From contig CAZUJL010000001.1 of assembly GCA_964620045.1 (NCBI GenBank), positions 522,592 to 586,591 of the forward strand: DNA of 64,000 bases, in the 5' to 3' direction. Within the stretch, counting starts at the first letter, position 1. The number at the start of each line of letters is the position of its first letter. The notes beneath the pieces were generated by a model. The model had not been told where the DNA came from. It saw only the letters and a program-made list of their open reading frames with translations, and did not search any database. The DNA is from an uncultured Nitrospirales bacterium (GTDB taxonomy: Bacteria; Hydrogenedentota; Hydrogenedentia; Hydrogenedentales; GCA-2746185). The position numbers were made by a program, and so were the translations under genes. Below are positions 2,128-50,330 of this stretch, piece after piece.

Positions 2128-2183
2128 GGGAGGGTCGCGCGCCTGCGCGACCGCAGTAGCAAGTAGAACGAAAGGTGAGATTA

Positions 2184-4442
2184 ATGACGACGACGTGGAA
2201 AGAAAAACTGGCTTCGAAGATGGAACCCGATCTCGCGCGCGAGATCGAGATTTTCGAGGCGCAGATGGAGCTGCGCAAGCGCGGCGAACTCGACGAGAAG
2301 ATTTTCGCCGAGCAGCGCCTGCGCCGCGGGGCCTATGGCCAGCGGTATGACAACGGCCAGCGGCACGACGGCGTGCAGCAGCAGACGATCAATTTCGGCC
2401 GCGAGTTGACGAAGGGGCCCGAGACCTTCTTCGACGCGCCGGGCATGATGCGCATCAAGATCCCCTTCGGCGGACTCACGGTCGAGCAGCTCGAAGTGAT
2501 GGCCGATATCGCCGAGGAGTACTCGGTGAATAACCTGCACGTGACCACACGGCAGGACATCCAGATGCACTACATCCACATCGAATCGACGCCGGACTTC
2601 ATGCGCCGGCTCGCGGCCGTGGGCATCACCACGCGCGAAGCGTGCGGCAACTCCGTGCGCAACGTGACCGCGTGCCCCTATGCCGGCGTGTGCACGGACG
2701 AGACCTTCGACGTGACGCCGTACGCCAAGGCGCTGATGAAGTTCCTGCTGGGCCACCCGGACACGATGGACTTCGGCCGCAAGTTTAAGCCGGCATTCTC
2801 GGGCTGCGCGCACCATGCCTGCGGCCTCGTGAACATGCACGACTTCGGCGCGGTCGCCAAGGTGAAGGAAATCGACGGGAAGGACGTGCGCGGATTTAGC
2901 GTATACGTCGGCGGCGGCCTCGGCGCCGTGCCGCACGACGCGAAGCTCTTTGATGAGTTCATTCCCGAATACGAACTGCTGCCGACGGTGCAGGCCGTCG
3001 CCCGCGTGTTCGCGCGGCTCGGCGAAAAGAAAAACCGCGCGCGGGCGCGCATCAAGTTCGTGGTCGCGAAACTCGGCATCGAGAAATTCCGCGAGGAAGT
3101 GCTCAAGGAAAAGGCCACGATGCCCTTCGACCCGCGCTGGAAGGGTCTGATCGATCAGCACCGCGACGGCCTGCAGGACCAGCCGCTGCACCCCGGCAAG
3201 GCACTAAACGGCGCGCTGCCGCCGGATGGCTTCTCCGTGTGGCGCGCGACGAATGTATATAAACAGCGCCAGCCGGGTTATGTGGCGGCCGTGATCACGC
3301 TGCCACTCGGCGACTTCTCGTCGTGGCAGGCGCGCAAGCTGGCGGACATCGCGCGCAAGCATTGCGGCGACACCATCCGGGCGACCGTGGACCAGAACCT
3401 GCTCTTCCGTTTCATTCCGGAAGCGAACATCATTGAGTTCTACAAGGACCTCGCGGCCATCGGCCTAAACCAGCCGGGCGCGAAGACGATTGTGGACGTG
3501 ACGGCGTGCCCCGGCACGGACTCGTGCAAGCTGGGCATTTCGTCGAGCCGCGGACTCGCGGCGGAACTGCGCAAGCGGCTGATGCAGAAGAACGCGATGC
3601 TGGACGAGGCGATCGGCAAGCTGCACATCAAGATCAGCGGCTGCTTCAACTCCTGCGGCCAACACCACATCTCCGACATCGGCTTCTACGGCGTGGCCCG
3701 CAGCATCGAGGGGCACTCGGTCCCCCACTTCCAGGTAATCCTCGGCGGGCAGTGGACCGAGAACGCGAAGTCCTACGGCCTCGCGGTCGCGGCGATTCCG
3801 TCGAAGAACATCCCCGATGTGGTCGATCGCGTCACTGCGCGTTACGCGAAAGAGCGCACGCAGGGCGAATCGTTCCAGGCGTACATCAAGCGGCTTGGCA
3901 AGCGTGAGTTGAAGGAAATGTTCGACGACCTCAGCGAAGTGCCGTCGCACGACGTGAACCCCGACATCTATCAGGATTGGGGCGACACGCGCGAGTACAC
4001 GAACGGCGACCGCGGCAAGGGCGAGTGCGCGGGCGAAGTCGTGAGCCTCGTGGACTTCAACCTGGCCGAGTCCGAGCGCGAAGCGTTTGAAGCCTCCGTG
4101 CTGCTCGAGGAAGGCAAATATCCGCAGGCGGACGCGATGGCCTATCAGGCGATGCTGTCGGCCGCGCGCGCGCTGGTGAAGACGCAGTGGCTCGACGTGC
4201 CGGCGGACCCGGACACGGTCGTGAAGGAATTCAGCAAACGCTTCGTGGACACCAAACTGTTCTCGTCGCACCTCGCGGCGGTGAAGTTCCACGAGTACCT
4301 GTTCGTGCGGCACGAGCGCGGCGCGAACGGCGTGAACCAGGAAACCGCGCGGCAGCTCGTCGAAGAATCGCAGCTCTTCATCGAAGCGGCCTTCGATTGC
4401 CAGATGCGCATGCAGAAAACCATCAGCGGAATTAAGGTTTAA
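2184..4442 (+). CDS. Ferredoxin-dependent sulfite/nitrite reductase hemoprotein (siroheme, 4Fe-4S)
   Basis: ORF 2175..4442; ATG at 2184 is preceded by AAAGGTGAG. It has two nitrite/sulfite-reductase ferredoxin-like halves and the Cys clusters that ligate the siroheme-[4Fe-4S] centre (CGNSVRNVTACP; TACPGTDSCKLG ... CFNSCGQHH). Confidence 0.8.
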   Translation: MTTTWKEKLASKMEPDLAREIEIFEAQMELRKRGELDEKIFAEQRLRRGAYGQRYDNGQRHDGVQQQTINFGRELTKGPETFFDAPGMMRIKIPFGGLTVEQLEVMADIAEEYSVNNLHVTTRQDIQMHYIHIESTPDFMRRLAAVGITTREACGNSVRNVTACPYAGVCTDETFDVTPYAKALMKFLLGHPDTMDFGRKFKPAFSGCAHHACGLVNMHDFGAVAKVKEIDGKDVRGFSVYVGGGLGAVPHDAKLFDEFIPEYELLPTVQAVARVFARLGEKKNRARARIKFVVAKLGIEKFREEVLKEKATMPFDPRWKGLIDQHRDGLQDQPLHPGKALNGALPPDGFSVWRATNVYKQRQPGYVAAVITLPLGDFSSWQARKLADIARKHCGDTIRATVDQNLLFRFIPEANIIEFYKDLAAIGLNQPGAKTIVDVTACPGTDSCKLGISSSRGLAAELRKRLMQKNAMLDEAIGKLHIKISGCFNSCGQHHISDIGFYGVARSIEGHSVPHFQVILGGQWTENAKSYGLAVAAIPSKNIPDVVDRVTARYAKERTQGESFQAYIKRLGKRELKEMFDDLSEVPSHDVNPDIYQDWGDTREYTNGDRGKGECAGEVVSLVDFNLAESEREAFEASVLLEEGKYPQADAMAYQAMLSAARALVKTQWLDVPADPDTVVKEFSKRFVDTKLFSSHLAAVKFHEYLFVRHERGANGVNQETARQLVEESQLFIEAAFDCQMRMQKTISGIKV

Positions 4443-4444
4443 TC

Positions 4445-5014
4445 ATGAACGACTTGAAACAATTCGACATTCGGATCACTTCGAAGACCTGGCAAGGCGT
4501 GGACACCGAGGCCTTCATGGGCGTGCTGCAGCGCTGGATTCAGCAGCGTGCAATTCCCGGCGTGCTCATCGACGTCGCGGACTACGGCCACATCCACCAC
4601 GGCCACGGCACGATTTTGGTCGGCCACGAGTACAACTTCAGCGTGGATTACGCGGACGGTACGCTGTCCGTGCTGGTGCGCACGAAACGTCCGGCCGAAG
4701 CGACACTCGCGGCGCGGATTGAAAACGCGCTGCGCCTGGCGCTGAAGGGGTGTCGCTTGCTCGAACAGGAACCGGAGTTCTCGGGCAAACTGACCTTCGA
4801 TCCGTCGACGTTTACCTTCGTGGCGAACGACCGCCTGCTCGCGCCGAACACCGACGCGACCTACGCCGCATTGAAGCCGGCCATCGAAGCGGCGGCCAAG
4901 GCCGTGCTGGGCGGAGGCTCGGTTGAGCTTGTGAAAAACGACCCCCGGGAGCGGATGACAGCCCGCGTTACGGCCGGAAAACCGGTGGCGCTGGCGGTCC
5001 TGGTCGGGGTGTAA
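4445..5014 (+). CDS. Hypothetical protein (189 aa), His-rich motif, coupled to the sulfite reductase
   Basis: ATG at 4445, 2 nt after the sir stop (TAATCATG). Contains HIHHGHGTILVGHEY, which could be a metal-binding site. I recognise no family. Confidence 0.5.
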   Translation: MNDLKQFDIRITSKTWQGVDTEAFMGVLQRWIQQRAIPGVLIDVADYGHIHHGHGTILVGHEYNFSVDYADGTLSVLVRTKRPAEATLAARIENALRLALKGCRLLEQEPEFSGKLTFDPSTFTFVANDRLLAPNTDATYAALKPAIEAAAKAVLGGGSVELVKNDPRERMTARVTAGKPVALAVLVGV

Positions 5015-5095
5015 ACGCCGGGCGGAAAGCTATTGCACCGCCCGGTGCGCATGTGTTACCTTGTATACGCACGTACATTTGAAGCCTCGCAAGTT

Positions 5096-5222
5096 GCTTA
5101 TCAAGAGCGGTGGAGGGACTGGCCCTGTGAAACCGCGGCAACCACGGCTTTTTCTTCGGAAAAAGACGAAGGTGCTAACTCCGACCCACCCCGTATACGC
5201 GGGGGTGCGGGAGAGATAAGTG
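5096..5222 (+). promoter_or_regulatory. SAM-I (S-box) riboswitch
   Basis: The sequence matches the S-box consensus. P1 is gCTTATCAAGAG ... AGATAAGt. The core reads GGTGGAGGGACTGGCCCtgtGAAaCCgcGGCAACC ... GGTGCTAAcTCC. There is an extended P4 insertion. Confidence 0.8.
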
Positions 5223-5290: not shown

Positions 5291-5326
5291 TAGCCCCCAA
5301 CGGGGCGTTGGAAAGGCTGCAACGCA

Positions 5327-6628
5327 ATGGCGGCAGGCAAGCGGTATTTCACTGCACTGAAGGGTCGCGAGAGCGGCAAAGAATACTCGCCGGACGAAGT
5401 GCGGTACGTGTGCGAATTCGACTTCGGCCCGCTGGAAGTCAAATACGACTACGAAGCGATTGCGCGCGATCTGACCAAGGACGTCATCCAGTCCCGCCGC
5501 CCGAGCATGTGGCGTTACAAAGAATTACTACCGATCGAAGGCGAGCCGACCGTGGGCGCGCAGGCGGGCTTCACGCCGCTCGTAAAAGCGGACCGTCTCG
5601 CGAAGCGTCTCGGCGTGACCGGCGAGCTGTACGTGAAGAATGACAGCGTGTGTTACCCGACGCTCTCGTTCAAAGACCGCGTGGTCAGCGTCGCGCTCTC
5701 GCGCTCGAAAGAATTTGGATATAAGACCGTGGCCTGCGCGAGCACGGGCAACCTGGCCAACTCCGTCGCGGCGAATGCGGCGGCCGCCGGCCTCGAATGC
5801 TTCGTGTTCATCCCGCACGACCTCGAACCGGGCAAGGTGCTGGGTTCGCAGGTGTTCGGCGCGAACGTGATTCGCATCGACGGGCCTTACGACAAAGTGA
5901 ACCGCCTGTGCAGCGAAGTGGCGGACAAATACAAGTGGGCGTTTGCGAATGTGAACATGCGCCCGTACTACGCCGAAGGCAGCAAGACGATGGGCTTCGA
6001 GATCGCCGAGCAGCTTGGCTGGCGCCTGCCGGATCAGGTGGTCGTGCCGATGGCGAGCGGCTCGCTCATGTGCAAAATCGAAAAGGCCTTCAACGAGTTC
6101 AAGAAACTGAAGTTCGTCGAAGACCATCACGTGAAAATTTACGGCGGCCAGGCGGAAGGCTGTTCGCCGATTACCGAGGCCGTGAAGAAGGGCATCGACC
6201 TGATTAAGCCGGTGGAGAAGCCGGACACGATCGTGAAGTCGCTGGCGATCGGCAACCCGGCGGACGGCTTCTACGCCGCGCGCTGCATTCAAGATTCCGG
6301 CGGCTACAGCGAGAACCCGACGGACGCGGAAACGGTCGAGGGCATCCGCCTGTTGGCCGAGTGCGAAGGCATCTTCGCGGAGACGGCGGGCGGCGTGACC
6401 GTGGCCGCGGCGAAGCGCTTGTTCGAATCGGGCAAGCTCGATCGCAAGGGCTGTACGGTCATCTGCGTGACGGGCAATGGCCTGAAGACGAAAGAGTGCC
6501 TGGACGGGCAGTTCAAGACGCTCGACGCGATCGCGCCGAACCTCGGCGCGTTTGATACGCTGTACGACTCGTTGGGTTCGACCGGTCCCGCGGCGCGCGC
6601 GCCGAAGGCCGTGGCGGCGTTGGCTTAA
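5327..6628 (+). CDS. Threonine-synthase-like PLP-dependent enzyme (fold type II); candidate homocysteine-forming MetM-type enzyme
   Basis: PLP lysine motif SFKDRVVSVALSRSKEFGYKTVACASTGNLANSVAANAA. GAAAGG RBS. Sits downstream of the SAM-I riboswitch and upstream of the sulfur-carrier gene. Confidence 0.75.
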   Translation: MAAGKRYFTALKGRESGKEYSPDEVRYVCEFDFGPLEVKYDYEAIARDLTKDVIQSRRPSMWRYKELLPIEGEPTVGAQAGFTPLVKADRLAKRLGVTGELYVKNDSVCYPTLSFKDRVVSVALSRSKEFGYKTVACASTGNLANSVAANAAAAGLECFVFIPHDLEPGKVLGSQVFGANVIRIDGPYDKVNRLCSEVADKYKWAFANVNMRPYYAEGSKTMGFEIAEQLGWRLPDQVVVPMASGSLMCKIEKAFNEFKKLKFVEDHHVKIYGGQAEGCSPITEAVKKGIDLIKPVEKPDTIVKSLAIGNPADGFYAARCIQDSGGYSENPTDAETVEGIRLLAECEGIFAETAGGVTVAAAKRLFESGKLDRKGCTVICVTGNGLKTKECLDGQFKTLDAIAPNLGAFDTLYDSLGSTGPAARAPKAVAALA

Positions 6629-18583: not shown

Positions 18584-21415
18584 GTGTCGAATTCTCTGCC
18601 TGCCCTGCATGATCTCGCCGCGACCCGCGCGGATATTCGTTTCGACGCGCTGACGCGCCGGCTCTTCGCCACCGACGCCTCCATCTATCAAATTGAACCC
18701 AAGGGCGTAGCGTTTCCAAAGTCGTCCGCGGAGACCTCGGCCTTCGTGCAGGCGGCGGCCTCGGACAATGTCAGCGTGATTCCGCGCGGCGCGGGCACAG
18801 GTCTCGTAGGCGGAGCGATCGGCGACGGCCTTGTGATTGATCAGGCCCGGCACAATCGCCGCATCACGCGGCTGAACGTCGATGCGCGCACGGTGCATGT
18901 CGAAGCCGGCGTCGTGCTCGACCAACTCAATGCCTACCTGCGGCCGCACGGCTTGCGATTCGGGCCGGATGTCGCCACGAGTTCGCGCGCGACGCTCGGC
19001 GGCATGATCGCGAACAATTCCTCCGGCTCTCATGTGCCGGTGTATGGCACGACGATCGACCATGTGCGTTCGATCGATTTCGTGCTTGCCGATGGTCGTC
19101 AGGTGATCATCGGCTCCGAGGCCGGCGATCTCGAGTTCATTCATGCGCGCGCGGCGGCGATTCTGGAGCCCTGCCGCGCGGAACTGGACGCGCGCATGCC
19201 ACCCGGCCTGCTCAAGCGCTGGCCTGGCTATGGCATCGAAGACTGGTTGCGACGCGGCGCGGCATTGCCGTGGCTCATCGGCGGCAGCGAAGGCACGCTG
19301 GGCATCATTAGCGGCGCGGAACTTGCCCTGCATCCCCTGCCCACGCGCAAAGGCCTCGGCGCGATTTCGTTCGCGACCGTCGCCGACGCGATGCAGGCCG
19401 CCGTCGTGCTACTGGATTTGCACGCGGCCGCAATCGAGCACATCGATCGCGTGCTATTCGAACAAACGCGCGGCCAGCTCGCGTTTCGCAAGGGCCGTGC
19501 GTTGCTTGGGCTTGATGAGGCGCCGTGCGAAGCGATCTTGCTGGTGGAATTTTTCGGCGATGTCGACGCGCCGCTCGCCGAATTGCGACGCCGGAATCTC
19601 GGCCTGCGCACGCGCACCTTTACGGCAAACGACGACATGGACGCCATCTGGAACGTACGCAAGGCCGGGCTCTCGCTACTGTCCGGCTGCGTGGGCGCGG
19701 CCAAACCTGTGACGGGCATCGAAGACACCTGCGTGCGCCCGCAAGACCTGGCGGAATACGTACGGGCGCTGCAGGGCGTGCTGTGGCCGCTGGGACTAAA
19801 GGCGTCGTTTTACGGCCACGCGGCGGCTGGCTTGCTTCACGTGCGGCCGGTGCTCGATCTGCATTCGGCCGATGATCTGCGCAAATTCCGGAAACTCGGC
19901 GACGAAGTTTCGACGATTGTGAAACAGTTCAAGGGATCCATCTCGGCGGAGCACGGTGTTGGCCTTGCGCGCACGGAGTATATGGCCGCGCACCTGGGCC
20001 CGACGCTCACCGAGGCCATGCGCGAGATCAAAACCACCTTCGATCCGAAAAACGTGTTCAACCCCGGCAAGCTCGTGCACGACGGGCGGTATCGATTCGA
20101 CACGCGGTTGCGCTGGGGCGCGGGGTATCACCTCGAGTTGCCGTTCGCGCCGAAGCTCGAATTCGCATTTAAGGATCAGTCCTTCGTCGGCAATCTCGAA
20201 CAATGCAACGGCTGCGGCGGGTGTCGCAAGGACGCACCGACGATGTGCCCAACGTATATCGCGACGGGCGAAGAAATCATGTCCACACGCGGCCGCGCGA
20301 ACGTGATCCGCGCGGCGCTGGATGGCACGCTCGAGGGCGGTCTTGCGTCGGCGGAACTCGAAGCCGCGCTGTCGAATTGCCTGTCCTGTAAGGCCTGCAC
20401 GACGGAATGCCCGAGCAACGTAAACCTTGCGCTGCTCAAAGCCGAACTGAACCACGCAAAACATCGACAGTTAGGTTTGCCGTTGCGCGATCGTCTGCTG
20501 AGCCGCGTCGATCTGATCGGCGCGATGGGCAGCCGCGCGCCAACGCTGGCCAATGCGGCGTTGTCGTTCGGGCCTGCGCGTCGCGCGATGCAGGGCGCGG
20601 TCGGGCTTTCGGCGGAACGGCCACTGCCAAAATTCGCGCGCGAGCGCTTCGACGAATGGTTTGCGCGGCACAAGCCGAATCGCGTGCCCACGCGCGGACG
20701 CGTCGTGCTGTGGGACGATTGCTTCACGCGCTACTACGACCCGAAGATCGGCATGGCGGCCGTGCAGGTGCTGGAAGCGGCCGGATTCGAGGCGGTGTTG
20801 CCCAAGGATCGCGCGTGTTGCGGTCGACCGGCGTTCAGCCTCGGGCGGCTCGACCTTGCGGAAGAATGGGCCGAGCACAACGCGAATCTGCTCTCGCGCA
20901 TTGACGAAGATACACCCATCCTGTTTCTCGAACCGTCGTGTTTTTCGATGATGTACGACGACTATCGCGAGCTGGATGTGCTCGGCTCCGACAATCTCCG
21001 CGGCCGCGCGCGGCTCTTCGAGCAATTCCTGGCGGAGGTGTTGGATCGGGACCCCTTCGCCCTGCGCTTCAAGCCGATGTCCGCGCGGGCGGCCATACAC
21101 ACGCATTGCCATGCAAAAGCGCTCACCGGAACCGGCGCGACGCCGCGCGTGCTGGGGCGTGTGCCGGAGTGCGACGCGCGGGTGCTGGATACGGCGTGCT
21201 GCGGCATGGCCGGGGCCTTCGGCGCGCTGGCGGAGAAGCAGGAACTCTCGGGGAAACTGGGCGCGTTGTTGGCAGAAAAACTCGAAGACGCGCCCGCGGA
21301 TGCCTTTGTAATCGCGTCCGGTACAAGCTGTCGTCAACAGATCGAATACACAACGAATCGCCGCCCCTTGCACGTGGCGGAATTCCTGGCGATGGCGCTG
21401 GAGCCGACGCGGTGA
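18584..21415 (+). CDS. FAD-linked oxidase fused to 4Fe-4S and CCG cysteine-rich domains (YdiJ/GlcD-GlcF-like 2-hydroxyacid dehydrogenase)
   Basis: N-terminal FAD_binding_4 (RGAGTGLVGGAIG). Central ferredoxin motifs (CNGCGGCRKDAPTMCP; CLSCKACTTECP). C-terminal CCG motifs (ACCGRPAF; CCGMAGAFG). 943 aa. Confidence 0.8.
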   Translation: MSNSLPALHDLAATRADIRFDALTRRLFATDASIYQIEPKGVAFPKSSAETSAFVQAAASDNVSVIPRGAGTGLVGGAIGDGLVIDQARHNRRITRLNVDARTVHVEAGVVLDQLNAYLRPHGLRFGPDVATSSRATLGGMIANNSSGSHVPVYGTTIDHVRSIDFVLADGRQVIIGSEAGDLEFIHARAAAILEPCRAELDARMPPGLLKRWPGYGIEDWLRRGAALPWLIGGSEGTLGIISGAELALHPLPTRKGLGAISFATVADAMQAAVVLLDLHAAAIEHIDRVLFEQTRGQLAFRKGRALLGLDEAPCEAILLVEFFGDVDAPLAELRRRNLGLRTRTFTANDDMDAIWNVRKAGLSLLSGCVGAAKPVTGIEDTCVRPQDLAEYVRALQGVLWPLGLKASFYGHAAAGLLHVRPVLDLHSADDLRKFRKLGDEVSTIVKQFKGSISAEHGVGLARTEYMAAHLGPTLTEAMREIKTTFDPKNVFNPGKLVHDGRYRFDTRLRWGAGYHLELPFAPKLEFAFKDQSFVGNLEQCNGCGGCRKDAPTMCPTYIATGEEIMSTRGRANVIRAALDGTLEGGLASAELEAALSNCLSCKACTTECPSNVNLALLKAELNHAKHRQLGLPLRDRLLSRVDLIGAMGSRAPTLANAALSFGPARRAMQGAVGLSAERPLPKFARERFDEWFARHKPNRVPTRGRVVLWDDCFTRYYDPKIGMAAVQVLEAAGFEAVLPKDRACCGRPAFSLGRLDLAEEWAEHNANLLSRIDEDTPILFLEPSCFSMMYDDYRELDVLGSDNLRGRARLFEQFLAEVLDRDPFALRFKPMSARAAIHTHCHAKALTGTGATPRVLGRVPECDARVLDTACCGMAGAFGALAEKQELSGKLGALLAEKLEDAPADAFVIASGTSCRQQIEYTTNRRPLHVAEFLAMALEPTR

Positions 21416-23076
21416 GTGCGGACTCGGCCGAGGACAACCTCGCGCGCGTTATCCACTACCACGATCGCACGAAACACGACTTCAACCGTTCCGCGCGCGG
21501 GCCGGGGTATCTCGATTGGGCAAACCAGCCCGATCCGTTTCGGCGTTACGATGGCGCGCCGTTGTATTTGCTGCCGCTTGACGAAAGCGAGCCGGCGACG
21601 CCTTACGAAAGTCTGTATGCGCGCGCTGTGAAGCCGCGCGCGCTGGACGTCCATTCGCTCGGCTGGTTTTTGGAATGTTCGCTCGGGGTATCCGCGACAA
21701 AATCCGCGGGCGGTTCGACGTGGAAACTGCGGTGCAATCCTTCCAGCGGCAACCTCCATCCGACCGAGGGGTATGTGCTTGCGCCGGCACTTTCTGAATT
21801 GTCAGAGACCCCCGGCGTCTATCACTACCGCGCCGACGAGCATGCCTTGGAACAACGGTGCGCATTATCCGCCGATGCCTGGAATGCTCTCGCGAATGAG
21901 TTCCCGGCGGGCACATTTTTCGCCGGGCTAAGCTCGATTCACTGGCGCGAGGCATGGAAGTACGGCGAGCGTGCGTTCCGTTACTGCAACCACGATGTCG
22001 GCCACGCACTTGGCGCGCTGCGCTATGCCGCCGCGGCCCTTGGCTGGCGGTGCGTACTGCTGCGTGGATTGAGTGACGGCGACATCGCGTCGTTGCTGGG
22101 CCTTGCGCAGAACGACACGGCCGCGGAGCCGGAACATCCCGATCTGATGATCGCGATCGTAACCAGCGAGGACGATCATTCGACGCCTACAATGCTTGCA
22201 ACCGAAACCTATACCGCTGGAAGCGACTGGCGTGGCACGCCAAATGCCCTCAGCGATGAGCATGTCGACTGGGCCGTTATCGGCGAAACGGCCGCAGCCT
22301 GCATTAAACCGCGCACCGAGACTGCACCGCACACGATAACGACCAATACGCGCGCAATCACGGCATCTCACATCACGGAGATCACCGCGGGGCGAATCTT
22401 TCGCCAGCGGCGCAGCGCGATCGACATGGACGGAGTATCCACGCTTTCGCGCGAAGTGTTCTATACGATGCTGGAACGTGTGATGCCGCGCGATGGGCGG
22501 CCGCCTTTCGACGTGTGGAGGTACTCGCCGGAGATCCACCTTGGGCTGTTCGTGCATCGCGTCGAAAACCTTGCGCCGGGACTTTATTTCTTACTGCGCA
22601 ATGCCGCACACCAAGACGCGCTCAAATCGGAAATGCGGACAGACTTCATCTGGGCCGCGCCGCAGGACTGCCCCCCACACCTTCCGCTGTATCACCTCGC
22701 CAGCGGCGACGGCCGCGGACTCGCGGCGCAGTTAAGTTGCATGCAGAGCATCGCCGGGGCCGGCGCGTTCAGCCTGGGCATGATCGCGCGTTTCGAGGCG
22801 CCATTGCGCGAACACGGCGCCTGGTTTTATCCCCGCCTCTTCTGGGAGGCCGGCCTGATCGGGCAGGCGCTGTACCTCGAGGCGGAGGCCGTCGGCCTGC
22901 GCGCCACGGGCATCGGGTGCTACTTCGACGATCCGGTGCACCGCGTCTTCGGTCTGCGCGGCCATGCGTTCCAGTCGCTATACCACTTCACAATCGGCGG
23001 GCCCGTGGACGACCCGCGCCTGACGAATCTGCCGCCGTACAGCGCTGAGCGGCGCGCGCGGCGCGGTTGGGTGTAA
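21412..23076 (+). CDS. Tandem nitroreductase-fold protein, SagB/ThcOx-type dehydrogenase family
   Basis: The GTG start overlaps the upstream stop (GTGA). N-terminal YHDRTKH signature. Two nitroreductase-like halves, about 554 aa. The 20938 ORF start is an artefactual extension. Confidence 0.6.
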   Translation: MSADSAEDNLARVIHYHDRTKHDFNRSARGPGYLDWANQPDPFRRYDGAPLYLLPLDESEPATPYESLYARAVKPRALDVHSLGWFLECSLGVSATKSAGGSTWKLRCNPSSGNLHPTEGYVLAPALSELSETPGVYHYRADEHALEQRCALSADAWNALANEFPAGTFFAGLSSIHWREAWKYGERAFRYCNHDVGHALGALRYAAAALGWRCVLLRGLSDGDIASLLGLAQNDTAAEPEHPDLMIAIVTSEDDHSTPTMLATETYTAGSDWRGTPNALSDEHVDWAVIGETAAACIKPRTETAPHTITTNTRAITASHITEITAGRIFRQRRSAIDMDGVSTLSREVFYTMLERVMPRDGRPPFDVWRYSPEIHLGLFVHRVENLAPGLYFLLRNAAHQDALKSEMRTDFIWAAPQDCPPHLPLYHLASGDGRGLAAQLSCMQSIAGAGAFSLGMIARFEAPLREHGAWFYPRLFWEAGLIGQALYLEAEAVGLRATGIGCYFDDPVHRVFGLRGHAFQSLYHFTIGGPVDDPRLTNLPPYSAERRARRGWV

Positions 23077-23108
23077 AATCCCTGCGGGGAACGGGGGACG
23101 CTCGCCGC

Positions 23109-23690
23109 ATGACGCCGGATCAACTCAATGCTTACTGGACGCGCACGTTTCCAGAGTGTCCGCCCGTCGGGTTTCTGCTCAAGCACATCTACAAAGATCG
23201 CGTTGCGCGCTTCCGCAGCTTTGAGAATGGCAAGAAGCACGCGGCCGCCGAACCAGATTACGTCCAGGTGTGCGCGCGGCAAAACACGTTGCTCGATCAT
23301 TTGTTCGTCGGCGAGCCGCAGGTCGTGCTGATTACGACCATTCCATCGGACAACGAGATGCCACCGAAGAACGCGCCGTCGTTTCTGAACTTCGATCCGA
23401 ACGGCCGCTTCGTGCACAGCCTCGGCATGCACGAATTCCAACTGGAGTTTCAAACGCCGTCGTACTGGCATTTGTTTATGAGCAGCTCGGATTTCGCGCC
23501 CGGTTGTTTCGATCCCGTCCTGCGCGCGGCCGCGGAGGACATGGCGGTCGCGGGCGTGGTCAATGTGATTTTTCTCGGGCCGTCGTCGCGCCGATTGCTG
23601 CACGTCTACCCCGGCGGCGCGGACGCCATTCTCGAAAACGATATGAAGCGCGAACAAATCCAGTCGCGCTATGCGGACTGGTCCGCCTGA
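23109..23690 (+). CDS. Hypothetical protein (193 aa), third gene of the oxidase/SagB-like operon
   Basis: ATG at 23109, 33 nt after the SagB-like stop. No family recognised. Cys- and His-containing. Confidence 0.45.
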   Translation: MTPDQLNAYWTRTFPECPPVGFLLKHIYKDRVARFRSFENGKKHAAAEPDYVQVCARQNTLLDHLFVGEPQVVLITTIPSDNEMPPKNAPSFLNFDPNGRFVHSLGMHEFQLEFQTPSYWHLFMSSSDFAPGCFDPVLRAAAEDMAVAGVVNVIFLGPSSRRLLHVYPGGADAILENDMKREQIQSRYADWSA

Positions 23691-23693
23691 GCC

Positions 23694-24257
23694 TTACACG
23701 AAGAAGGGATTGAACCGCCGCTCGACGCCGATGGTCGAGCACGGTCCGTGCCCCGGGCACACGATAGTGTCGTCCGGCAAGGTAAACAGGTTCTTGCGCA
23801 CATTCTCGATTTGCCGCGCGGAGTCTTCCGGATTGGACGTGCCGCCCACCGAGCCCGCGAACAACGCATCGCCGGTGAACACAATCCCCGGGAAAATCAG
23901 GCTCAAGGCAACCGCCGTGTGCCCGGCGGTGTCCACCGTACGCCCCGCCAACCGGCCGATCTGCACCGTATCGCCGGGTTGCGCGACCATAGCGCTCGCC
24001 ACGCCACCCGGAGACGGAATCGCGCTAATCACGCGCGCGCCAAAATGTTTCGCGGCATCCGGGATGGCCTGGACATGGTCCCAATGCTCGTGCGTAACGA
24101 AAATGGTCGTGAGTTTCAGGTTGTGACGCTCGACATACTCCGGCAGGCGCAGATCGAAATCGCCGCAATCCACCAGCAGGGCCTCCCGCGTATCGGGGCA
24201 GGCGTAGATAAACGAATTTACTTCGATCGGATTGAGCCGGAAGTGGCCGAGCATCAT
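23694..24257 (-). CDS. Small MBL-fold metallo-hydrolase (glyoxalase-II/YcbL-like)
   Basis: HxHxDH motif VTHEHWDH. Trimmed to the MMLGHF start. That start ATG overlaps the upstream stop (ATGA). Confidence 0.75.
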   Translation of the reverse strand: MMLGHFRLNPIEVNSFIYACPDTREALLVDCGDFDLRLPEYVERHNLKLTTIFVTHEHWDHVQAIPDAAKHFGARVISAIPSPGGVASAMVAQPGDTVQIGRLAGRTVDTAGHTAVALSLIFPGIVFTGDALFAGSVGGTSNPEDSARQIENVRKNLFTLPDDTIVCPGHGPCSTIGVERRFNPFFV

Positions 24258-24748
24258 TGCTTGATCCCGTCCAGCTTCGCGTTCTCCACGTTCGGCTTTC
24301 CCGAAACGTCGCGCAAGTCCGCGCCGGTCAGGTTCGCGCGCCGCATGATCGCGCGATCGAGATTCGCCTCCCGGAAGTCCGCACCCTGAAAGTCCGCGTT
24401 GCCGGGCCGCGCGTAGTACAAATTCGCGCGGCGAAAATCGGCGCCGTGTGCGCGTGTCCCCACCAGATTGCAGCGGCTCAATTCCGCATCGGCGAACACG
24501 GCCCCATCCGCAATCGCGCCGCCCAGCACGGCGAATTCGAGGTTGGCGCCGGTGAAATCCGCGCCGGCGCAGTCGGCCCCATCCAGAAAACACCCAAACA
24601 AATTCGCGCCGCGAAACACCGCGCCGGCCAGCGACATGCCGGACAGCCGCGCATGGCGCAGATCCGCGCCGGAAAAATCAGCACCGGAAAGATCGTGGCC
24701 GCGCAGGTCTCGTCCGCGCAGATCTTCATTGGCAAACGACGCCGACAT
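24254..24748 (-). CDS. Pentapeptide-repeat protein (~165 aa)
   Basis: Nearly the entire protein is A(D/N)LxG pentapeptide repeats (ADFSGADLRHARLSGMSLAGAVFRGANL ...). The start overlaps the upstream stop (TGATG). Confidence 0.8.
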   Translation of the reverse strand: MSASFANEDLRGRDLRGHDLSGADFSGADLRHARLSGMSLAGAVFRGANLFGCFLDGADCAGADFTGANLEFAVLGGAIADGAVFADAELSRCNLVGTRAHGADFRRANLYYARPGNADFQGADFREANLDRAIMRRANLTGADLRDVSGKPNVENAKLDGIKQ

Positions 24749-25428
24749 CAATGCACGTCCTGCTTGGACAATTTCGCTTCGGCCCAGTCGGCATAAAACG
24801 CGACTTCCTTGATACAGGCGCGAAATTCCGCCGGCGTGGCCTTCTGCGCGCGCAAGGAATGCACCAGCTCGAACCACGCCTGGCCGTCCTCATCGACAAT
24901 CGCGAAGCTGGAATGCGGCAGGCGTTCGTTGGTGCGTAGCGCCCATTCAAAATGTTTCGCATCCACCGGGCCGCAACGGCTGCGCACACGGATCGTCTGC
25001 GCGCCGGCCTCGGAGGTGCCGTGCGAGGCAAATACCTTCTGCGTGCGCCCGTCCTTCAGCGTGACGATGATTTCGTAGCCGCCGTCGGCCGCGCGCGCAC
25101 TGCGTTTGCCCGGCCGTTCGATGGCCCGCACGAGTTCATCCAGCGTGAGCAATGCTTCCTTGCTGGTGCGCCCGGCATCGCGCCAGGTGGCATCGCCGAG
25201 CGCCCGCTGCACCGCGGCGCGCACATCGGTGTCCGTATCCTCGGCAAACATCGCCAGGGCACCGCGCGCACGCGAGACGACCTTGCCCAGAAAATCGGCC
25301 GCGTCGCGCCGGGTCACCCAAGTGCCGCCGCGGTTCGACAGTTGCGCCACCGCGCGATCGAGATCGTCTGCCATGCGCACCTCCTCCGGACCGGCCATTG
25401 TAGCGAACCCGCCCCCTTCATATACCAC
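24748..25428 (-). CDS. Hypothetical protein, N-terminal HEAT/PBS-lyase-like repeats + uncharacterised C-terminal domain
   Basis: VRAAVQRALGD-type repeat. C-terminal ~115 aa unknown. True start is probably MADDL (~25374). First gene of a three-gene minus-strand operon. Confidence 0.45.
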   Translation of the reverse strand: MVYEGGGFATMAGPEEVRMADDLDRAVAQLSNRGGTWVTRRDAADFLGKVVSRARGALAMFAEDTDTDVRAAVQRALGDATWRDAGRTSKEALLTLDELVRAIERPGKRSARAADGGYEIIVTLKDGRTQKVFASHGTSEAGAQTIRVRSRCGPVDAKHFEWALRTNERLPHSSFAIVDEDGQAWFELVHSLRAQKATPAEFRACIKEVAFYADWAEAKLSKQDVH

Positions 25429-25502
25429 GTATTCGGGCGGCGTATTCTTGACCCATCGCGAAGGCGCGCCCTATCATGCCCGCTCAAACTCCGGGGGCGC
25501 GC

Positions 25503-26396
25503 ATGGCGAAAATCATTGACGGCAACAAAGTGGCGGACGCGATCCGCGCGGGGATTGCCGCGGACATTCAGGCGCTGGCCAAGCGCGGCATTCAGCCGGG
25601 GCTCGCGGTCGTGCTCGTGGGCGAGGACCCGGCCAGCCAGGTGTACGTGCGCATGAAGCGCAAAGAGTGCGCGGAACTCGGCATGCTCTCCGTCGATCAC
25701 ACGCTGCCCGCGTCGACCTCTGAAAAGAAACTACTCGCGCTGATCGACAAGCTCAACGCAGATCCCAAAGTGCACGGCATTCTCGTGCAGCTTCCGTTGC
25801 CGAAACAGATCGACGAAGGCAAAGTGATCAACGCCATTTCGCCCGAGAAGGATGTGGATGGATTTCATCCGGTGAACGTCGGGCGGATGCTCGCGGGCGA
25901 GCCGGGATTCCTGCCGTGCACGCCGGCGGGCTGCCAGCAGTTGCTGCTGCATTATGGTTACGACCCCGCGGGCAAACACGTCGTCGTGCTGGGCCGCTCA
26001 AATATCGTGGGCAAGCCGGCGGCCGCGATTCTGATGCAGAAGGCGGCCGGCGCGAATGCGACCGTCACCGTCTGCCATTCGCGCACGAAAAATATCGCCA
26101 AGTACACCCGCGAGGCGGACATCCTCATCGCCGCGATGGGCTCGGCCAGGTTCGTGAAGGCCTCGATGGTGAAAAAAGGTGTGATTGTGATCGACGTGGG
26201 CACGAATCGCGTCGAGGACGCGACCAAGAAATCAGGATTCCGACTCGTCGGCGACGTCGATTACGATGCGGTCTCGAAGAAAGCCAAAGCCATCACACCG
26301 GTGCCGGGCGGTGTCGGCCCGATGACGCGCGTGATGCTGATGAAAAACACCGTGGAAGCGGCGAAGCGCACGGATTCCAAGGGCAAGCGCCGCTAG
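25503..26396 (+). CDS. folD: Bifunctional methylenetetrahydrofolate dehydrogenase/cyclohydrolase
   Basis: MAKIIDGNKVADAIRAGIAADIQALAKRGIQPGLAVVLVGEDPASQVYVRMK. Confidence 0.9.
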   Translation: MAKIIDGNKVADAIRAGIAADIQALAKRGIQPGLAVVLVGEDPASQVYVRMKRKECAELGMLSVDHTLPASTSEKKLLALIDKLNADPKVHGILVQLPLPKQIDEGKVINAISPEKDVDGFHPVNVGRMLAGEPGFLPCTPAGCQQLLLHYGYDPAGKHVVVLGRSNIVGKPAAAILMQKAAGANATVTVCHSRTKNIAKYTREADILIAAMGSARFVKASMVKKGVIVIDVGTNRVEDATKKSGFRLVGDVDYDAVSKKAKAITPVPGGVGPMTRVMLMKNTVEAAKRTDSKGKRR

Positions 26397-35667: not shown

Positions 35668-37455
35668 CTACTTCCCATTCGCCCGATTCGCCTGCAGTAC
35701 GCAGCGGAATCCCACCGTGGTGAGTTGGGCTTCGCGGAAGAGGCCTTTGCGGGCGCAGCAGCGGAGTTCGGGGGGCTGGGAGTGCCAAGAGCCGCCGCGG
35801 ACTACGCGGCGCGGTTCGCTGGGGACGTCGGTGTCGCCTCCCGTGCCGGGGTCGTAGGGCACGAAGGCGCCCGTGGTCCATTCGAACACGTTGCCGGCGA
35901 GATCGAAGACGCCGTCGGGCGTGGCGCCGGAGTCGTGCATGGTGACAATCGACGGCATGCCGAGGTAGTCGCCGTAGTTGCAGACGGCCGTGTCGGGTTC
36001 GAGCGTGCCCCAGGGATATTTGCGGCTGTCCTTGCCGCGCGCGGCGAATTCCCACTGGCGCTCGTTGGGAATTGCCTTGCCGCACCACTGCGCGTAGGCC
36101 TGGGCGTCGTCGAAGGTAACACCGACGACGGGCTGGCGCGGACCGTTCAGCTCAGGGTCGCGCCAATATTTCGGCTCGGCGTGGCCGGTGGCCTTTATGA
36201 ACGCGCCGTATTGGTCGTTCGTCACCGGGTACTTGTCGATGTAGAACGGCTCAATGCGCGTTTCGAATTCAGGCGCTTCCTCGCGGAAGTCGTTGCAGCC
36301 CATGAAAAAGCTGCCGCCGGGCAACAGGACCATGTTCTCCGTGGACACCTGCTTGCCGGACTGCGTCTGCACAGAGACGCCTTCGCGGGCCTTGTATGAC
36401 TTTTTGTAGGCGGTGCCGAGCGCGTCGCGGAACTCGCGCGCGGATTGCCAGCGGCGCTCGCGCTCCTTAAGCAACGCGCGGTCGAGCACCTCGACGACGG
36501 AGGGCGAGACATCCTGTCGCACTTCGAGCACGGTGACCGGGTCGTCAATCGGCGTGCGCAGCGTGAGCAACTCGTGCAGGATCAGGCCCATGCTGTAAAT
36601 ATCGGAGCGGAAATCGATCGGCAGGTGGCGGTGCTGCTCGGGCGAGGCGTACACCGCCGTACCCACGATGCGTTTGGGCTTCGGCTGCCCCGGCTGCAGG
36701 ACTTCCTGCTCGTCTTCCACGGCGACCGCGAGACCGAAGTCGAGCACCTTCGCGCGGTCGCCCGGCAGCAACATGATGTTTTCCGGCTTCAAGTCGCGGT
36801 GAACCACCATGCGGTGGGCGTAGTCGAGCGCGGAGAGCGACTGCAGCGTAAGGTCGATGGCGAGGTGCGCGTCCATCAGGCGGCGCTCGGCCCGGTGTTT
36901 CTTGAGGTACGCGCGCAGCGAGGCGCCCTTGAGCAGCTCCATCGTCAGGTACAGGATACCGTCGGGCGTGGTGCTCACGTCGTGGACGGACACGATATTC
37001 TCGTGGCGCAGGCGGCGCGCGATCTGGGCCTCTTTAATGAAAAGCTGCTGGCCACGCTGGGTGGCGAGCGCGCGGGGGTGCATGAACTTCAGCGCGACTT
37101 CTTCGTCGATCAGCGCGTCGTGCGCTTTATATACAACACCCATGCCGCCTTTGCCGATCTTGGCGTCGATAATGTACCGGTCGGCGATGCGGGTGCCGCT
37201 CTCGAAATTGAGGGCCTGTTCGGCGGGGCGCTGCTCGGTGGTGGGCACGCGGACGGCCGCGCCACAGCCGAAACACAGGCCGGGCCGCCCCTGGACCGTG
37301 TCCGGGACGATGATGCGAAGTCCGCAGCTCCCGCACGTGACATGGATCATCGGTGGTTTTCCCGCCCCAAGGAATCTGTCGGGAATCGTAGCACTGGTGC
37401 GCCGATCCGGCAAAATAGGACAGCGTTTCACCATTGACAAAGGCCTGATCGCCAC
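35668..37455 (-). CDS. Ser/Thr protein kinase fused to a C-terminal formylglycine-generating-enzyme (FGE-sulfatase) domain, with an N-terminal zinc ribbon
   Basis: CGSCG ... CFGCG ribbon. Kinase subdomains I–XI (GKGGMGVVYKA, HRDLKPEN, DFG). C-terminal RVVRGGSWHS ... FGE-type domain. Confidence 0.8.
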   Translation of the reverse strand: MAIRPLSMVKRCPILPDRRTSATIPDRFLGAGKPPMIHVTCGSCGLRIIVPDTVQGRPGLCFGCGAAVRVPTTEQRPAEQALNFESGTRIADRYIIDAKIGKGGMGVVYKAHDALIDEEVALKFMHPRALATQRGQQLFIKEAQIARRLRHENIVSVHDVSTTPDGILYLTMELLKGASLRAYLKKHRAERRLMDAHLAIDLTLQSLSALDYAHRMVVHRDLKPENIMLLPGDRAKVLDFGLAVAVEDEQEVLQPGQPKPKRIVGTAVYASPEQHRHLPIDFRSDIYSMGLILHELLTLRTPIDDPVTVLEVRQDVSPSVVEVLDRALLKERERRWQSAREFRDALGTAYKKSYKAREGVSVQTQSGKQVSTENMVLLPGGSFFMGCNDFREEAPEFETRIEPFYIDKYPVTNDQYGAFIKATGHAEPKYWRDPELNGPRQPVVGVTFDDAQAYAQWCGKAIPNERQWEFAARGKDSRKYPWGTLEPDTAVCNYGDYLGMPSIVTMHDSGATPDGVFDLAGNVFEWTTGAFVPYDPGTGGDTDVPSEPRRVVRGGSWHSQPPELRCCARKGLFREAQLTTVGFRCVLQANRANGK

Positions 37456-50286: not shown

Positions 50287-50297
50287 TCTCCAATTTC

Positions 50298-50330
50298 GTA
50301 TAAGCGTAAAATACAATATAACGCTTATAC
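50298..50330. promoter_or_regulatory. AT-rich perfect palindrome (putative operator) immediately upstream of the FG-GAP lipoprotein gene
   Basis: gtataagcgt-aaaatacaatata-acgcttatac, i.e. 10-bp arms. About 12–45 nt upstream of the likely start. Confidence 0.35.

Follow-up and report, generated by a model that had tools for sequence, protein, structure and literature searches.

A conserved operon of Hydrogenedentota pairs a pentapeptide-repeat protein with a minimal MBL-fold enzyme

To our knowledge, apart from Qnr/MfpA, whose members protect gyrase, and a handful of others such as HetL, most bacterial pentapeptide-repeat proteins (PRPs) are of no known function, and the only cytoplasmic PRPs that are mechanistically understood act on gyrase. 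MfpA is chromosomally encoded, in the mfpA-mfpB 'conservon', next to a putative regulator. Gyrase is likewise named as the target of cytoplasmic PRPs with an understood mechanism in PMC12864828. The YbjN family and the class I T3SS chaperones are small, non-enzymatic, partner-binding proteins; DR1245 is a partner of DdrB, and a resemblance to T3SS chaperones is described for YbjN proteins (PMC3575483, PMC5398634). Among MBL-fold enzymes of the glyoxalase II/persulfide dioxygenase branch, Arg163, Thr164 and Asp165 of human ETHE1 line a proposed substrate channel (PMC4383860). Here, we describe an operon in which a PRP, an MBL-fold enzyme of this branch (MBL) and a protein with a predicted YbjN-like domain (g1) are encoded together.

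The operon lies on the minus strand of a 64-kb stretch of DNA (the window, the positions of which are used throughout) and consists of g1 (25374..24748; 208 aa; ATG start, from the ORF list and the orthologue alignment), PRP (24748..24254; 164 aa; Pfam Pentapeptide) and MBL (24257..23694; 187 aa; Pfam Lactamase_B). The overlapping stops and starts reported in the initial annotation can be read directly in the sequence. At the TGATG junction (24746..24750), the g1 stop (TGA, 24750-24748) and the PRP start (ATG, 24748-24746) have their A in common, i.e. an overlap of 1 nt, and at the ATGA junction (24254..24257) the PRP and MBL genes share 4 nt, the PRP stop (TGA, 24256-24254) falling within the ATGATG (24257-24252) of the MBL start. 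A gap of 3 bp separates the MBL stop (TAA, 23696-23694) from that of a convergent gene on the plus strand (23690-23688). The start of g1, previously set at 25428, has to be moved: all 21 of 21 aligned g1 orthologues begin with MADDLDRA and a Shine-Dalgarno sequence, GGAGGAG, lies 6 nt upstream of the ATG at 25374; therefore, the gene spans 25374..24748 and does not start from the GTG at 25428. The divergent intergenic region of 101 bp (25375..25475), which holds this Shine-Dalgarno sequence and is common to the operon and folD (25476..26396, plus strand), presumably contains the operon promoter. A promoter/terminator scan of the operon gave nothing above the shuffled expectation, and its sole consensus promoter match points towards folD. 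The setting is that of a housekeeping locus, since the GC content of the window is uniform, core genes surround the operon (folD, ispH, fba, flagellar export and heme synthesis) and none of five proteins matched the PADLOC models of anti-phage defence; a defence system was rejected on the latter ground. The operon is single-copy and shows no sign of mobility.

We compared 48 related loci, most of them titled Hydrogenedentota. MBL was located directly 3' of PRP in 48 of 48, a proportion well sampled by a genome scan with two peptide patterns derived from the PRP alignment, which samples the taxonomic limits less well, and g1 was present in 39 of 48; the synteny that the initial annotation had wanted checked thus holds. 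The PRP and MBL genes overlap in 45 of the 48 loci (by 4 nt in 41 and by 1 nt in four), and a TGATG or ATGA-type overlap joins g1 to PRP in most loci containing g1. Because the same order and overlaps occur in 45 of 48 PRP/MBL loci and in most g1/PRP loci, their recurrence is far more than chance would give. Moreover, the overlaps have been kept although the proteins are only 40-60 % identical across loci, in agreement with the tight co-expression first suggested from the window. The surroundings vary: folD is the divergent neighbour in around 16 of the 48 loci, and three loci (L007, L008 and L009) are flanked by unrelated genes. The operon is real and has been maintained throughout an entire bacterial phylum of which little is known.

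A search with an MBL profile yielded 80 loci, only two of which have a PRP upstream, i.e. L049 (49 % identical) and L050 (35 %), the divergent PRP of L050 being missed by tblastn and detected by an HMM search. The other 78 MBL relatives (up to about 47 % identical) had no PRP or g1 within flanks of up to 3 kb, or less on short contigs. The MBLs of L049 and L050 both carry the GGT loop described below, a change specific to the PRP-coupled enzymes. Full-text literature searches for a PRP-MBL operon gave only incidental co-mentions and nothing relevant; as far as these searches show, the pairing is undescribed, as had been supposed, and so appears to be the g1-PRP-MBL combination.

PRP belongs to the pentapeptide-repeat superfamily (PF00805; 116.2 bits against 20.2; E = 4e-34) and is predicted to be cytoplasmic. 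As read from its sequence, it comprises 32 uninterrupted in-register pentapeptides in about eight coils, with no loops, no C-terminal helix and four residues after the last repeat, the register being unbroken; the features of Qnr/MfpA/AlbG-type DNA mimics, i.e. the dimerisation helix, Qnr loops A and B and strong acidity (the net charge is -3, with an orthologue median of -2), are absent. Its scores lie below the NCBIfam cut-offs for Qnr (NF033086; 48.9 against 240 bits), MfpA (NF000349; 52.2 against 360), HetL (83 against 260) and Alr5209 (88 against 125), and a plasmid tblastn with PRP returned generic, repeat-driven matches of 40-48 %, none specific to Qnr or McbG. The C-terminal coils bear a signature, NLVG...LYYSRPGNADF...RAIFRRANL...ANFENA, in the conservation profile of 36 orthologues, and this surface signature is also kept in loci without g1. 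Many orthologues have an N-terminal CCCH motif, which in some of them resembles putative DNA-binding zinc fingers at scores below threshold, and it is present in every one of the 48 loci that is without g1.

MBL is a member of the MBL-fold superfamily (PF00753; 61.1 bits against 22.7; E = 1.8e-16), namely a core-only representative of the glyoxalase II/persulfide dioxygenase branch. Its AF2 model (pLDDT 94) matched 4ysb, 2xf4 and 7ev5 in Foldseek (TMq 0.86-0.89), and in a PDB sequence search YcbL (2xf4; 7e-22) came first, followed by Myxococcus ETHE1 (4ysb; 3e-20). The 2xf4 match falls into two stretches separated by a deletion of about 19 residues; no curated YcbL/GloC model exists. The HxHxDH metal-binding motif (H56-E-H58-W-D60-H61; 24075..24092, minus strand) is seen in the sequence, and all seven metal ligands, i.e. 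H56, H58, D60, H61, H113, D130 and H170, are invariant among the orthologues compared (43 and 44). By its ligand set, MBL is predicted to be metal-competent. What sets it apart is the loop G138-G139-T140 (23838..23846, minus strand), a clade-specific substitute for the substrate-channel loop G-R-(T/S)-D at nine residues from the bridging Asp130: GG(T/V) is found in 48 of 48 PRP-coupled loci and GR(T/S)D in most uncoupled relatives. In the sequence alignments, G139 falls opposite the Arg of YcbL (GRSD) and Myxococcus ETHE1 (GRTD), while the basic residue at the corresponding position of GloB is Lys143; the substrate-site basic residue of GloB, YcbL and ETHE1 is thus absent, with an invariant Gly in its place. 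The top NCBIfam match, GSH_gloB (TIGR03413), reached 80.6 bits where 200.8 are required; it spans model positions 10-164 out of 248, MBL itself ending at residue 187, and the C-terminal helical glutathione-binding domain of GloB is missing. Failing the curated threshold, lacking this domain and altered in the loop, MBL is probably not a plain glyoxalase II, an identity that the initial annotation had listed among its refuting outcomes, and plain GloB was ruled out on these three counts. A persulfide dioxygenase also seems improbable: it is as similar in fold as YcbL, yet MBL has neither its channel residues nor its C-terminus. Faint precomputed Pfam matches to the Anti-Pycsar protein Apyc1 in orthologues, with none in the window protein, were treated as generic MBL similarity. 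Within this branch, hydrolases and dioxygenases cannot be told apart by fold and sequence, as ETHE1 has retained these ligands too (PMC4383860).

The window g1 has no Pfam (E<=0.01) or NCBIfam match. Its AF2 model (pLDDT 85.9) matched 2plg, 8q8o, DR_1245 (4h5b), AmyR, YbjN, CesT and ExsC in the PDB (Foldseek E 1e-5 to 1e-2), superposing with a probability of 1.00 over about 135 aligned columns (TM on the target 0.5-0.67). Going by this model, the C-terminal alpha/beta domain (residues ~76-208) has the YbjN/class I T3SS chaperone fold. The N-terminus (residues ~1-75; nt 25374-25150) may form a HEAT-like helical hairpin, to which a profile search lends weak support: besides 60 full-length representatives at E<1e-30, multi-HEAT-repeat proteins match over residues 14-62. 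Weak Pfam matches to HEAT_2, YbjN and CesT_Tir_1 occur among g1 homologues; for the HEAT repeat (PF13646) these are weak precomputed matches in orthologues and none in the window protein, and for the YbjN family (PF10722) only a distant homologue gave 16.4 bits, against a threshold of 22, with no match for the window protein. The earlier description of g1 as HEAT-like therefore applies, weakly, to the first 75 or so residues and not to the C-terminal 130, which are YbjN/T3SS-chaperone-like.

Several arrangements hint at what g1 may do. P0184, P0233 and P0290 combine a domain resembling it with a Ser/Thr kinase in one protein, and in P0204 g1 and PRP are naturally fused in frame, albeit in a single case that could be an assembly error. 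A distant g1-like family lies directly upstream of the gene for a different hydrolase, of the penicillin-amidase family, in all four members checked; the two genes have 17 nt in common in L129/L130, L131 and L133 and lie 136 nt apart in L134. Across the 48 loci, g1 alone is found in 29, g1 and the CCCH motif in ten, CCCH alone in nine and neither in none, a reciprocity that rests on few clades and on raw counts without phylogenetic correction; L050 has neither, its contig ending 428 nt upstream.

In the explanation that we tentatively prefer, the operon is of a housekeeping type, inherited vertically on the chromosome and characteristic of Hydrogenedentota and a few lineages further away. It would be made up of a PRP-MBL unit and a g1 adaptor and would function independently of the convergent FAD-oxidase/SagB-like/DUF3885 operon. 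Its core would be a translationally coupled pair, i.e. a cytoplasmic PRP beta-helix and a minimal, metal-competent MBL, made in fixed proportion and acting as one unit, in which the conserved C-terminal PRP coils would bind MBL and either govern its substrate site or complete it. MBL would depend on metal for hydrolysis, with thioesters or esters as the likeliest class of substrate, though not S-lactoylglutathione or glutathione persulfide. As for g1, the YbjN/DR_1245/CesT/ExsC fold, the P0204 fusion, the g1/CCCH reciprocity and the penicillin-amidase neighbours all argue for a binder, which would be a non-enzymatic adaptor or chaperone docking onto PRP and whose role may be taken over by the N-terminal, zinc-finger-like CCCH extension of PRP. 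Translational coupling means co-production and is not proof of a PRP-MBL complex. It is tempting to go further and regard PRP as an obligate enzyme subunit, its C-terminal coils supplying or gating the substrate-binding elements no longer present in MBL (the Arg-Thr-Asp loop, the insertion of YcbL and the C-terminal domain of GloB/ETHE1) and g1 or CCCH recruiting a macromolecular substrate or target. This stronger version we consider doubtful; if true, it would define the first enzymatic partner of a cytoplasmic bacterial PRP and the first role for such a protein beyond topoisomerase protection.

Other explanations start from PRP itself. The initial annotation had seen a SagB-type gene just across the 3-bp convergent gap; the gap and the facing operon are there, but the adjoining gene encodes a DUF3885 protein (23067-23690, plus strand; Pfam 5e-22) and is the last of the convergent operon, in which the SagB-like gene occupies about 21412-23076 (plus strand). 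As this gene exceeds the cut-off of the SagB-domain model (TIGR03605; 90.8 against 78.4) and the two operons are only 3 bp apart, PRP might be a McbG-like immunity protein of a non-canonical TOMM pathway around the SagB-like dehydrogenase. However, the SagB-like and DUF3885 genes adjoin the trio in seven of the 48 loci, all from the closest clade (L001-L006 and L010), and in one of 39 species-representative genomes, the flanks of the other 41 loci being unrelated housekeeping genes. Neither the large ORFs of the window nor the flanks of relatives contain a YcaO, the absence of which had been noted from the start, and the SagB-like gene is coupled to a GlcD/GlcF-type FAD/FeS oxidase and DUF3885, not to a precursor or cyclodehydratase; the cluster of precursor, YcaO and SagB/McbC that goes with McbG-type immunity is therefore lacking. 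With flanks that differ, SagB confined to the closest relatives, no YcaO and a PRP far below the Qnr and MfpA cut-offs, the proposed tie to TOMM or McbG is unsupported and scarcely credible, which removes a tempting link to microcin immunity. PRP could instead be an MfpA/Qnr-like DNA mimic whose housekeeping task is to regulate or protect DNA gyrase or topoisomerase IV, g1 its regulator, like MfpB for MfpA, and MBL an independent enzyme sharing the transcript; the MBL might, for example, destroy a small-molecule topoisomerase poison. The precedent of gyrase as the target (PMC12864828), the mildly acidic PRP, a surface signature kept without g1, as would fit a universal cellular target, and the faint likeness of some CCCH motifs to DNA-binding zinc fingers speak for such a mimic. 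Yet the Qnr and MfpA scores, the missing C-terminal dimerisation segment and Qnr-type loops and a charge weak for a DNA mimic speak against it, and it leaves unexplained why PRP never occurs without MBL and why the MBL loop is changed only in the coupled clade. We regard it as rather unlikely.

Starting from the enzyme, MBL could be a short YcbL/GloC-type glyoxalase II or a persulfide dioxygenase, with PRP and g1 as unrelated passengers kept by operon inertia. Its closest sequence and fold matches (YcbL, BLEG-1, TTHA1623, Staphylococcus aureus GloB and ETHE1), its top NCBIfam match and the JGI annotation of orthologues as hydroxyacylglutathione hydrolase all point that way. Such a detoxification enzyme is nevertheless unlikely in view of the low and truncated GSH_gloB match and the replacement of the YcbL/ETHE1 Arg by an invariant Gly; inertia is also hard to square with a 4-nt overlap in 41 of 48 loci amid reshuffled surroundings. 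A toxin-antitoxin-like pair, in which PRP blocks the active site of an MBL that might otherwise do harm and g1 or CCCH releases PRP on a signal by ExsC-like partner switching, would account for a gene order and 4-nt overlap like those of antitoxin-toxin pairs, for the match of g1 to the partner-switching chaperones ExsC and CesT and for the kinase fusions, which suggest a signalling role. Against it stand the lack of any PADLOC match and the single-copy, immobile, housekeeping setting, and we know of no toxic members of the glyoxalase II/persulfide dioxygenase branch; we consider it very unlikely. A PRP invariably and translationally coupled to one enzyme, the substrate loop of which has changed in step with the coupling, offers a concrete, testable handle on PRP function outside the Qnr group. 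The operon also provides a lineage marker for the uncultured phylum Hydrogenedentota, and g1 points to an unannotated family of HEAT+YbjN-like adaptors that accompanies different hydrolases in different phyla.

Compared with the known systems, PRP shares with MfpA, Qnr, AlbG and McbG a cytoplasmic right-handed quadrilateral beta-helix of A(D/N)(L/F)xx repeats, deduced for PRP from sequence, and, like MfpA, it is chromosomal and encoded beside a putative regulator. In contrast to those systems, which have no fixed enzyme gene, PRP is always coupled to one, and no biosynthetic or resistance cluster surrounds it. The best sequence and fold matches of MBL are YcbL/GloC, TTHA1623 and BLEG-1, short type-II glyoxalase II-like MBLs of ~210 aa, which have the same metal ligands and C-terminus, PGHGPxSTxGxERxxNPF, and likewise do without the GloB helical domain; compared with YcbL, MBL has some 19 residues fewer from motif 1 to motif 2 and GGT instead of GRSD, and its gene always follows a PRP gene. 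ETHE1-type persulfide dioxygenases are similar in fold (TMq 0.86 to 4ysb) and align in sequence without gaps over residues 15-184, but MBL lacks their C-terminal ~45 residues and the Arg163-Thr164-Asp165 channel residues (PMC4383860). Finally, the likeness of g1 to YbjN, AmyR, DR_1245, CesT and ExsC is one of fold in its C-terminal domain; with its additional N-terminal HEAT hairpin, g1 stands apart from the YbjN family as a separate, unannotated HEAT+YbjN-like family.

By ORF reading, the trio extends from 25374 to 23694 on the minus strand, and the operon with overlapping stops and starts proposed in the initial annotation was seen directly in the sequence. The last base of the stop TGA (24750-24748) of the first gene, g1, is also the first base of the ATG of the gene encoding the pentapeptide-repeat protein (PRP; junction TGATG), whose own stop (24256-24254) lies inside the ATGATG at the start of the metallo-beta-lactamase-fold (MBL) gene, i.e. 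a 4-nt ATGA overlap. Pfam assigned the middle and last genes to Pentapeptide (4e-34) and Lactamase_B (1.8e-16), respectively, while g1 had no Pfam match. Order, strand and overlaps of the earlier description stood, whereas two details had to be revised. The longest possible g1 ORF starts at GTG 25428, the start chosen earlier, but g1 was placed at 25374..24748 (208 aa, start ATG 25374) because all 21 of 21 orthologues begin MADDLDRA and GGAGGAG lies 6 nt ahead of this ATG. Moreover, the gene across the 3-bp gap is not SagB-like, i.e. the MBL stop (23696-23694) faces the stop of a convergent DUF3885 gene (23067-23690, plus strand; Pfam 5e-22).

The DUF3885 gene overlaps the end of a SagB-like gene (about 21412-23076, plus strand; 554 aa, two nitroreductase domains), which itself overlaps the gene of a GlcD/GlcF-type FAD/FeS oxidase (18584-21415, plus strand; 943 aa), the three forming a separate operon with overlapping junctions (18584-23690, +). 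Elsewhere, the window encodes a 696-aa protein that joins a class I SAM methyltransferase domain to a D-Ala-D-Ala-ligase-like ATP-grasp domain (37-2127, +). A sulfite/nitrite reductase gene (2160-4442) precedes a plus-strand SAM riboswitch (5095-5222; RF00162, 78.7 bits), which is followed by the gene for a PLP-dependent (PALP) enzyme (5294-6628). One minus-strand gene (35668-37455) encodes a Ser/Thr protein kinase joined to an FGE-sulfatase (formylglycine-generating-enzyme-like) domain, and sulfatase and DUF1501/PSCyt-PSD genes elsewhere in the window are reminiscent of a Planctomycetes-like repertoire. A GC dip (0.564 vs ~0.63) at the gene for an 848-aa FG-GAP-repeat protein (47770-50316, -) showed no sign of a mobile element, and the next gene encodes an ordinary NAPRTase.

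Close relatives (g1 69-92 % identical) harbour the same trio, which says little because the entire neighbourhood is likewise conserved. We also searched with the MBL and inspected contigs of orthologues only 50-60 % identical. Three of these loci (L007, L008 and L009) carry the three genes with overlaps as in the window, in wholly different flanks (TerC/Fe-S biogenesis, ruvAB, der/plsY) and with neither SagB nor DUF3885 adjoining. Scanning species-representative genomes with the PRP alignment, via two PRP-derived peptide patterns, yielded 39 loci, i.e. by record titles 25 from Hydrogenedentota or similar, nine from 'uncultured Nitrospirales/Nitrospiraceae' and five with other labels; the proteins of those nine interleave with Hydrogenedentota proteins, so that we read their titles as a probable naming problem.

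Across the 48 loci compared, the MBL gene directly follows that of the PRP in every one and g1 lies upstream in 39, so the synteny for which the initial annotation had called is retained. SagB/DUF3885 were found only in L001-L006 and L010, and in about 16 of the 48 the divergently oriented neighbour is folD. PRP and MBL overlap by 4 nt in 41 loci and by 1 nt in four, and are separated by a gap in three; g1/PRP junctions overlap in most g1-bearing loci. As far as sequence can indicate, the layout fits co-transcription, with conserved translational coupling; the operon context is housekeeping, without a defence or biosynthetic signal. In L027 (4489-5049), a 559-bp gap separates PRP from MBL, and in L016 (4453-5268) the MBL frame extends to 272 aa while homology stops at residue 141, which may reflect a frameshift or an assembly error.

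Conversely, when metagenomes were scanned with the MBL alignment, at least 80 loci came up, in which PRP was sought by tblastn and then HMM. Among the matches listed, only L049 (49 % identical) and the low-GC L050 (35 %; divergent PRP 57 nt upstream of MBL) had an upstream PRP, while the other 78 listed relatives (at most ~47 % identical) had none in flanks of up to 3 kb, less on short contigs. Coupling to the PRP is limited to what appears to be a single group of MBL orthologues; it is ancient enough to extend past the phylum (L047, L050) and is kept while the surroundings reshuffle.

The MBL (187 aa; AF2 model pLDDT 94) retains all seven binuclear-site ligands, invariant across 43-44 orthologues. 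Its top fold matches were Myxococcus ETHE1, YcbL, BLEG-1, PDO-rhodanese fusions and S. aureus GloB, and its top sequence match was YcbL (7e-22). It is a predicted core-only enzyme: what YcbL inserts between motifs 1 and 2 is missing, as is the C-terminal domain found in GloB and ETHE1. After the bridging Asp130 it reads GGT, in contrast to GRSD in YcbL and GRTD in ETHE1; all 48 PRP-coupled loci have GG(T/V), and GR(T/S)D is retained by most relatives that are not coupled. The Arg of this loop corresponds to Lys143, a glutathione-binding residue, in human GloB. The proposed substrate channel of human ETHE1 is lined by Arg163, Thr164 and Asp165, and its metal ligands are those of glyoxalase II as well (PMC4383860). 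Given the invariant ligands, stripped core and altered loop, the MBL is probably active, but on other than canonical glutathione-linked substrates. Judged by its predicted ligands, it is a catalytically intact, stripped-down enzyme whose putative substrate loop changed along with the gain of a PRP partner.

The PRP comprises 32 uninterrupted pentapeptides with only four residues beyond the last repeat, has a net charge of -3, and its sequence shows neither signal peptide nor loops. Its C-terminal coils bear a family signature (NLVG, LYYSRPGNADF, RAIFRRANL, ANFENA), of which some residues face outward. Orthologues of about 200 aa (L007 5402-6004, L013 ~3851-4453 and 17 other loci) carry an N-terminal motif, HYxPxxCx4Cx3ALTGx3CWxH, absent from the window PRP and similar to CCCH zinc fingers (Zf_WRKY19, zf-C3Hc3H) only below the Pfam threshold. 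This motif is present in all loci without g1: 29 of the 48, which are phylogenetically non-independent, have g1 only, ten have both, nine have the motif only and none has neither, suggesting overlapping roles. The chaperone-fold adaptor g1 seems dispensable where the PRP carries its own N-terminal domain.

The g1 model (AF2, pLDDT 85.9) combines an N-terminal helical hairpin region with a beta-rich alpha/beta domain. At E<1e-30, a profile search returned 60 full-length family representatives; in the wider family the C-terminal domain comes after HEAT repeats. In P0184, P0233 and P0290, the g1-like HEAT+YbjN-like module forms the C-terminal domain behind a Ser/Thr kinase, which suggests that this domain family, as yet unannotated, acts in signalling or substrate recruitment. 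Proteins of the YbjN-like kind bind partners and are not enzymes (PMC3575483, PMC5398634). DR1245 binds DdrB (PMC3575483), and AmyR shows the fold of a chaperone but plays no part in secretion (PMC5398634). A distant HEAT+YbjN-like relative (~241-249 aa) from another phylum (LytB only 32 % identical) is encoded immediately ahead of a gene of the penicillin-amidase family (Ntn hydrolase) in 4/4 contigs checked, with a 17-nt overlap in L129/L130 (5001-8211), L131 (5001-8259) and L133 (4001-7199) and a 136-nt separation in L134 (2043-5235), which suggests that g1-like adaptors accompany hydrolases more generally. The upstream flanks of this pair vary, and include a BlaI/BlaR1-like pair in L133.

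We tentatively propose, with slightly less than even confidence in the package as a whole, that PRP and MBL would assemble into a complex, the PRP controlling or completing the MBL active site, that g1 would dock on the PRP, as supported by one natural fusion joining a g1 domain in frame to a PRP (P0204), and that the reaction would be metal-dependent hydrolysis of an ester or thioester, probably of a small molecule. A gyrase-directed, MfpA-like PRP beside an independently acting enzyme seems unlikely; the PRP falls below every curated PRP family threshold (Qnr 48.9/240, MfpA 52.2/360, HetL 83/260, Alr5209 88/125). That the MBL is simply a glyoxalase II or PDO and the other two genes are passengers we consider rather improbable; the MBL scores 80.6 with the curated GSH_gloB model, under its cut-off of 200.8.

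An inhibitor/enzyme pair with partner switching is a poor candidate. The initial annotation had found a tie of the PRP, as a McbG-like immunity protein, to a non-canonical TOMM system suggestive, which we regard as very improbable: the SagB-like protein does pass the TIGR03605 SagB-domain threshold (90.8 vs 78.4), but no YcaO or precursor was found near it, and it is therefore a SagB-like dehydrogenase outside any TOMM context. Close relatives (L001, L004, L006) share its operon.

Compared with known systems, all parts of the proposed PRP-MBL-g1 assembly belong to known superfamilies (PRP, MBL, YbjN-like fold), while in curated family tests no trio protein falls in a characterised family, and our literature searches turned up no account of this gene combination. 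Through its clean phylum-wide association, the function of a non-Qnr PRP comes within reach of experiment.
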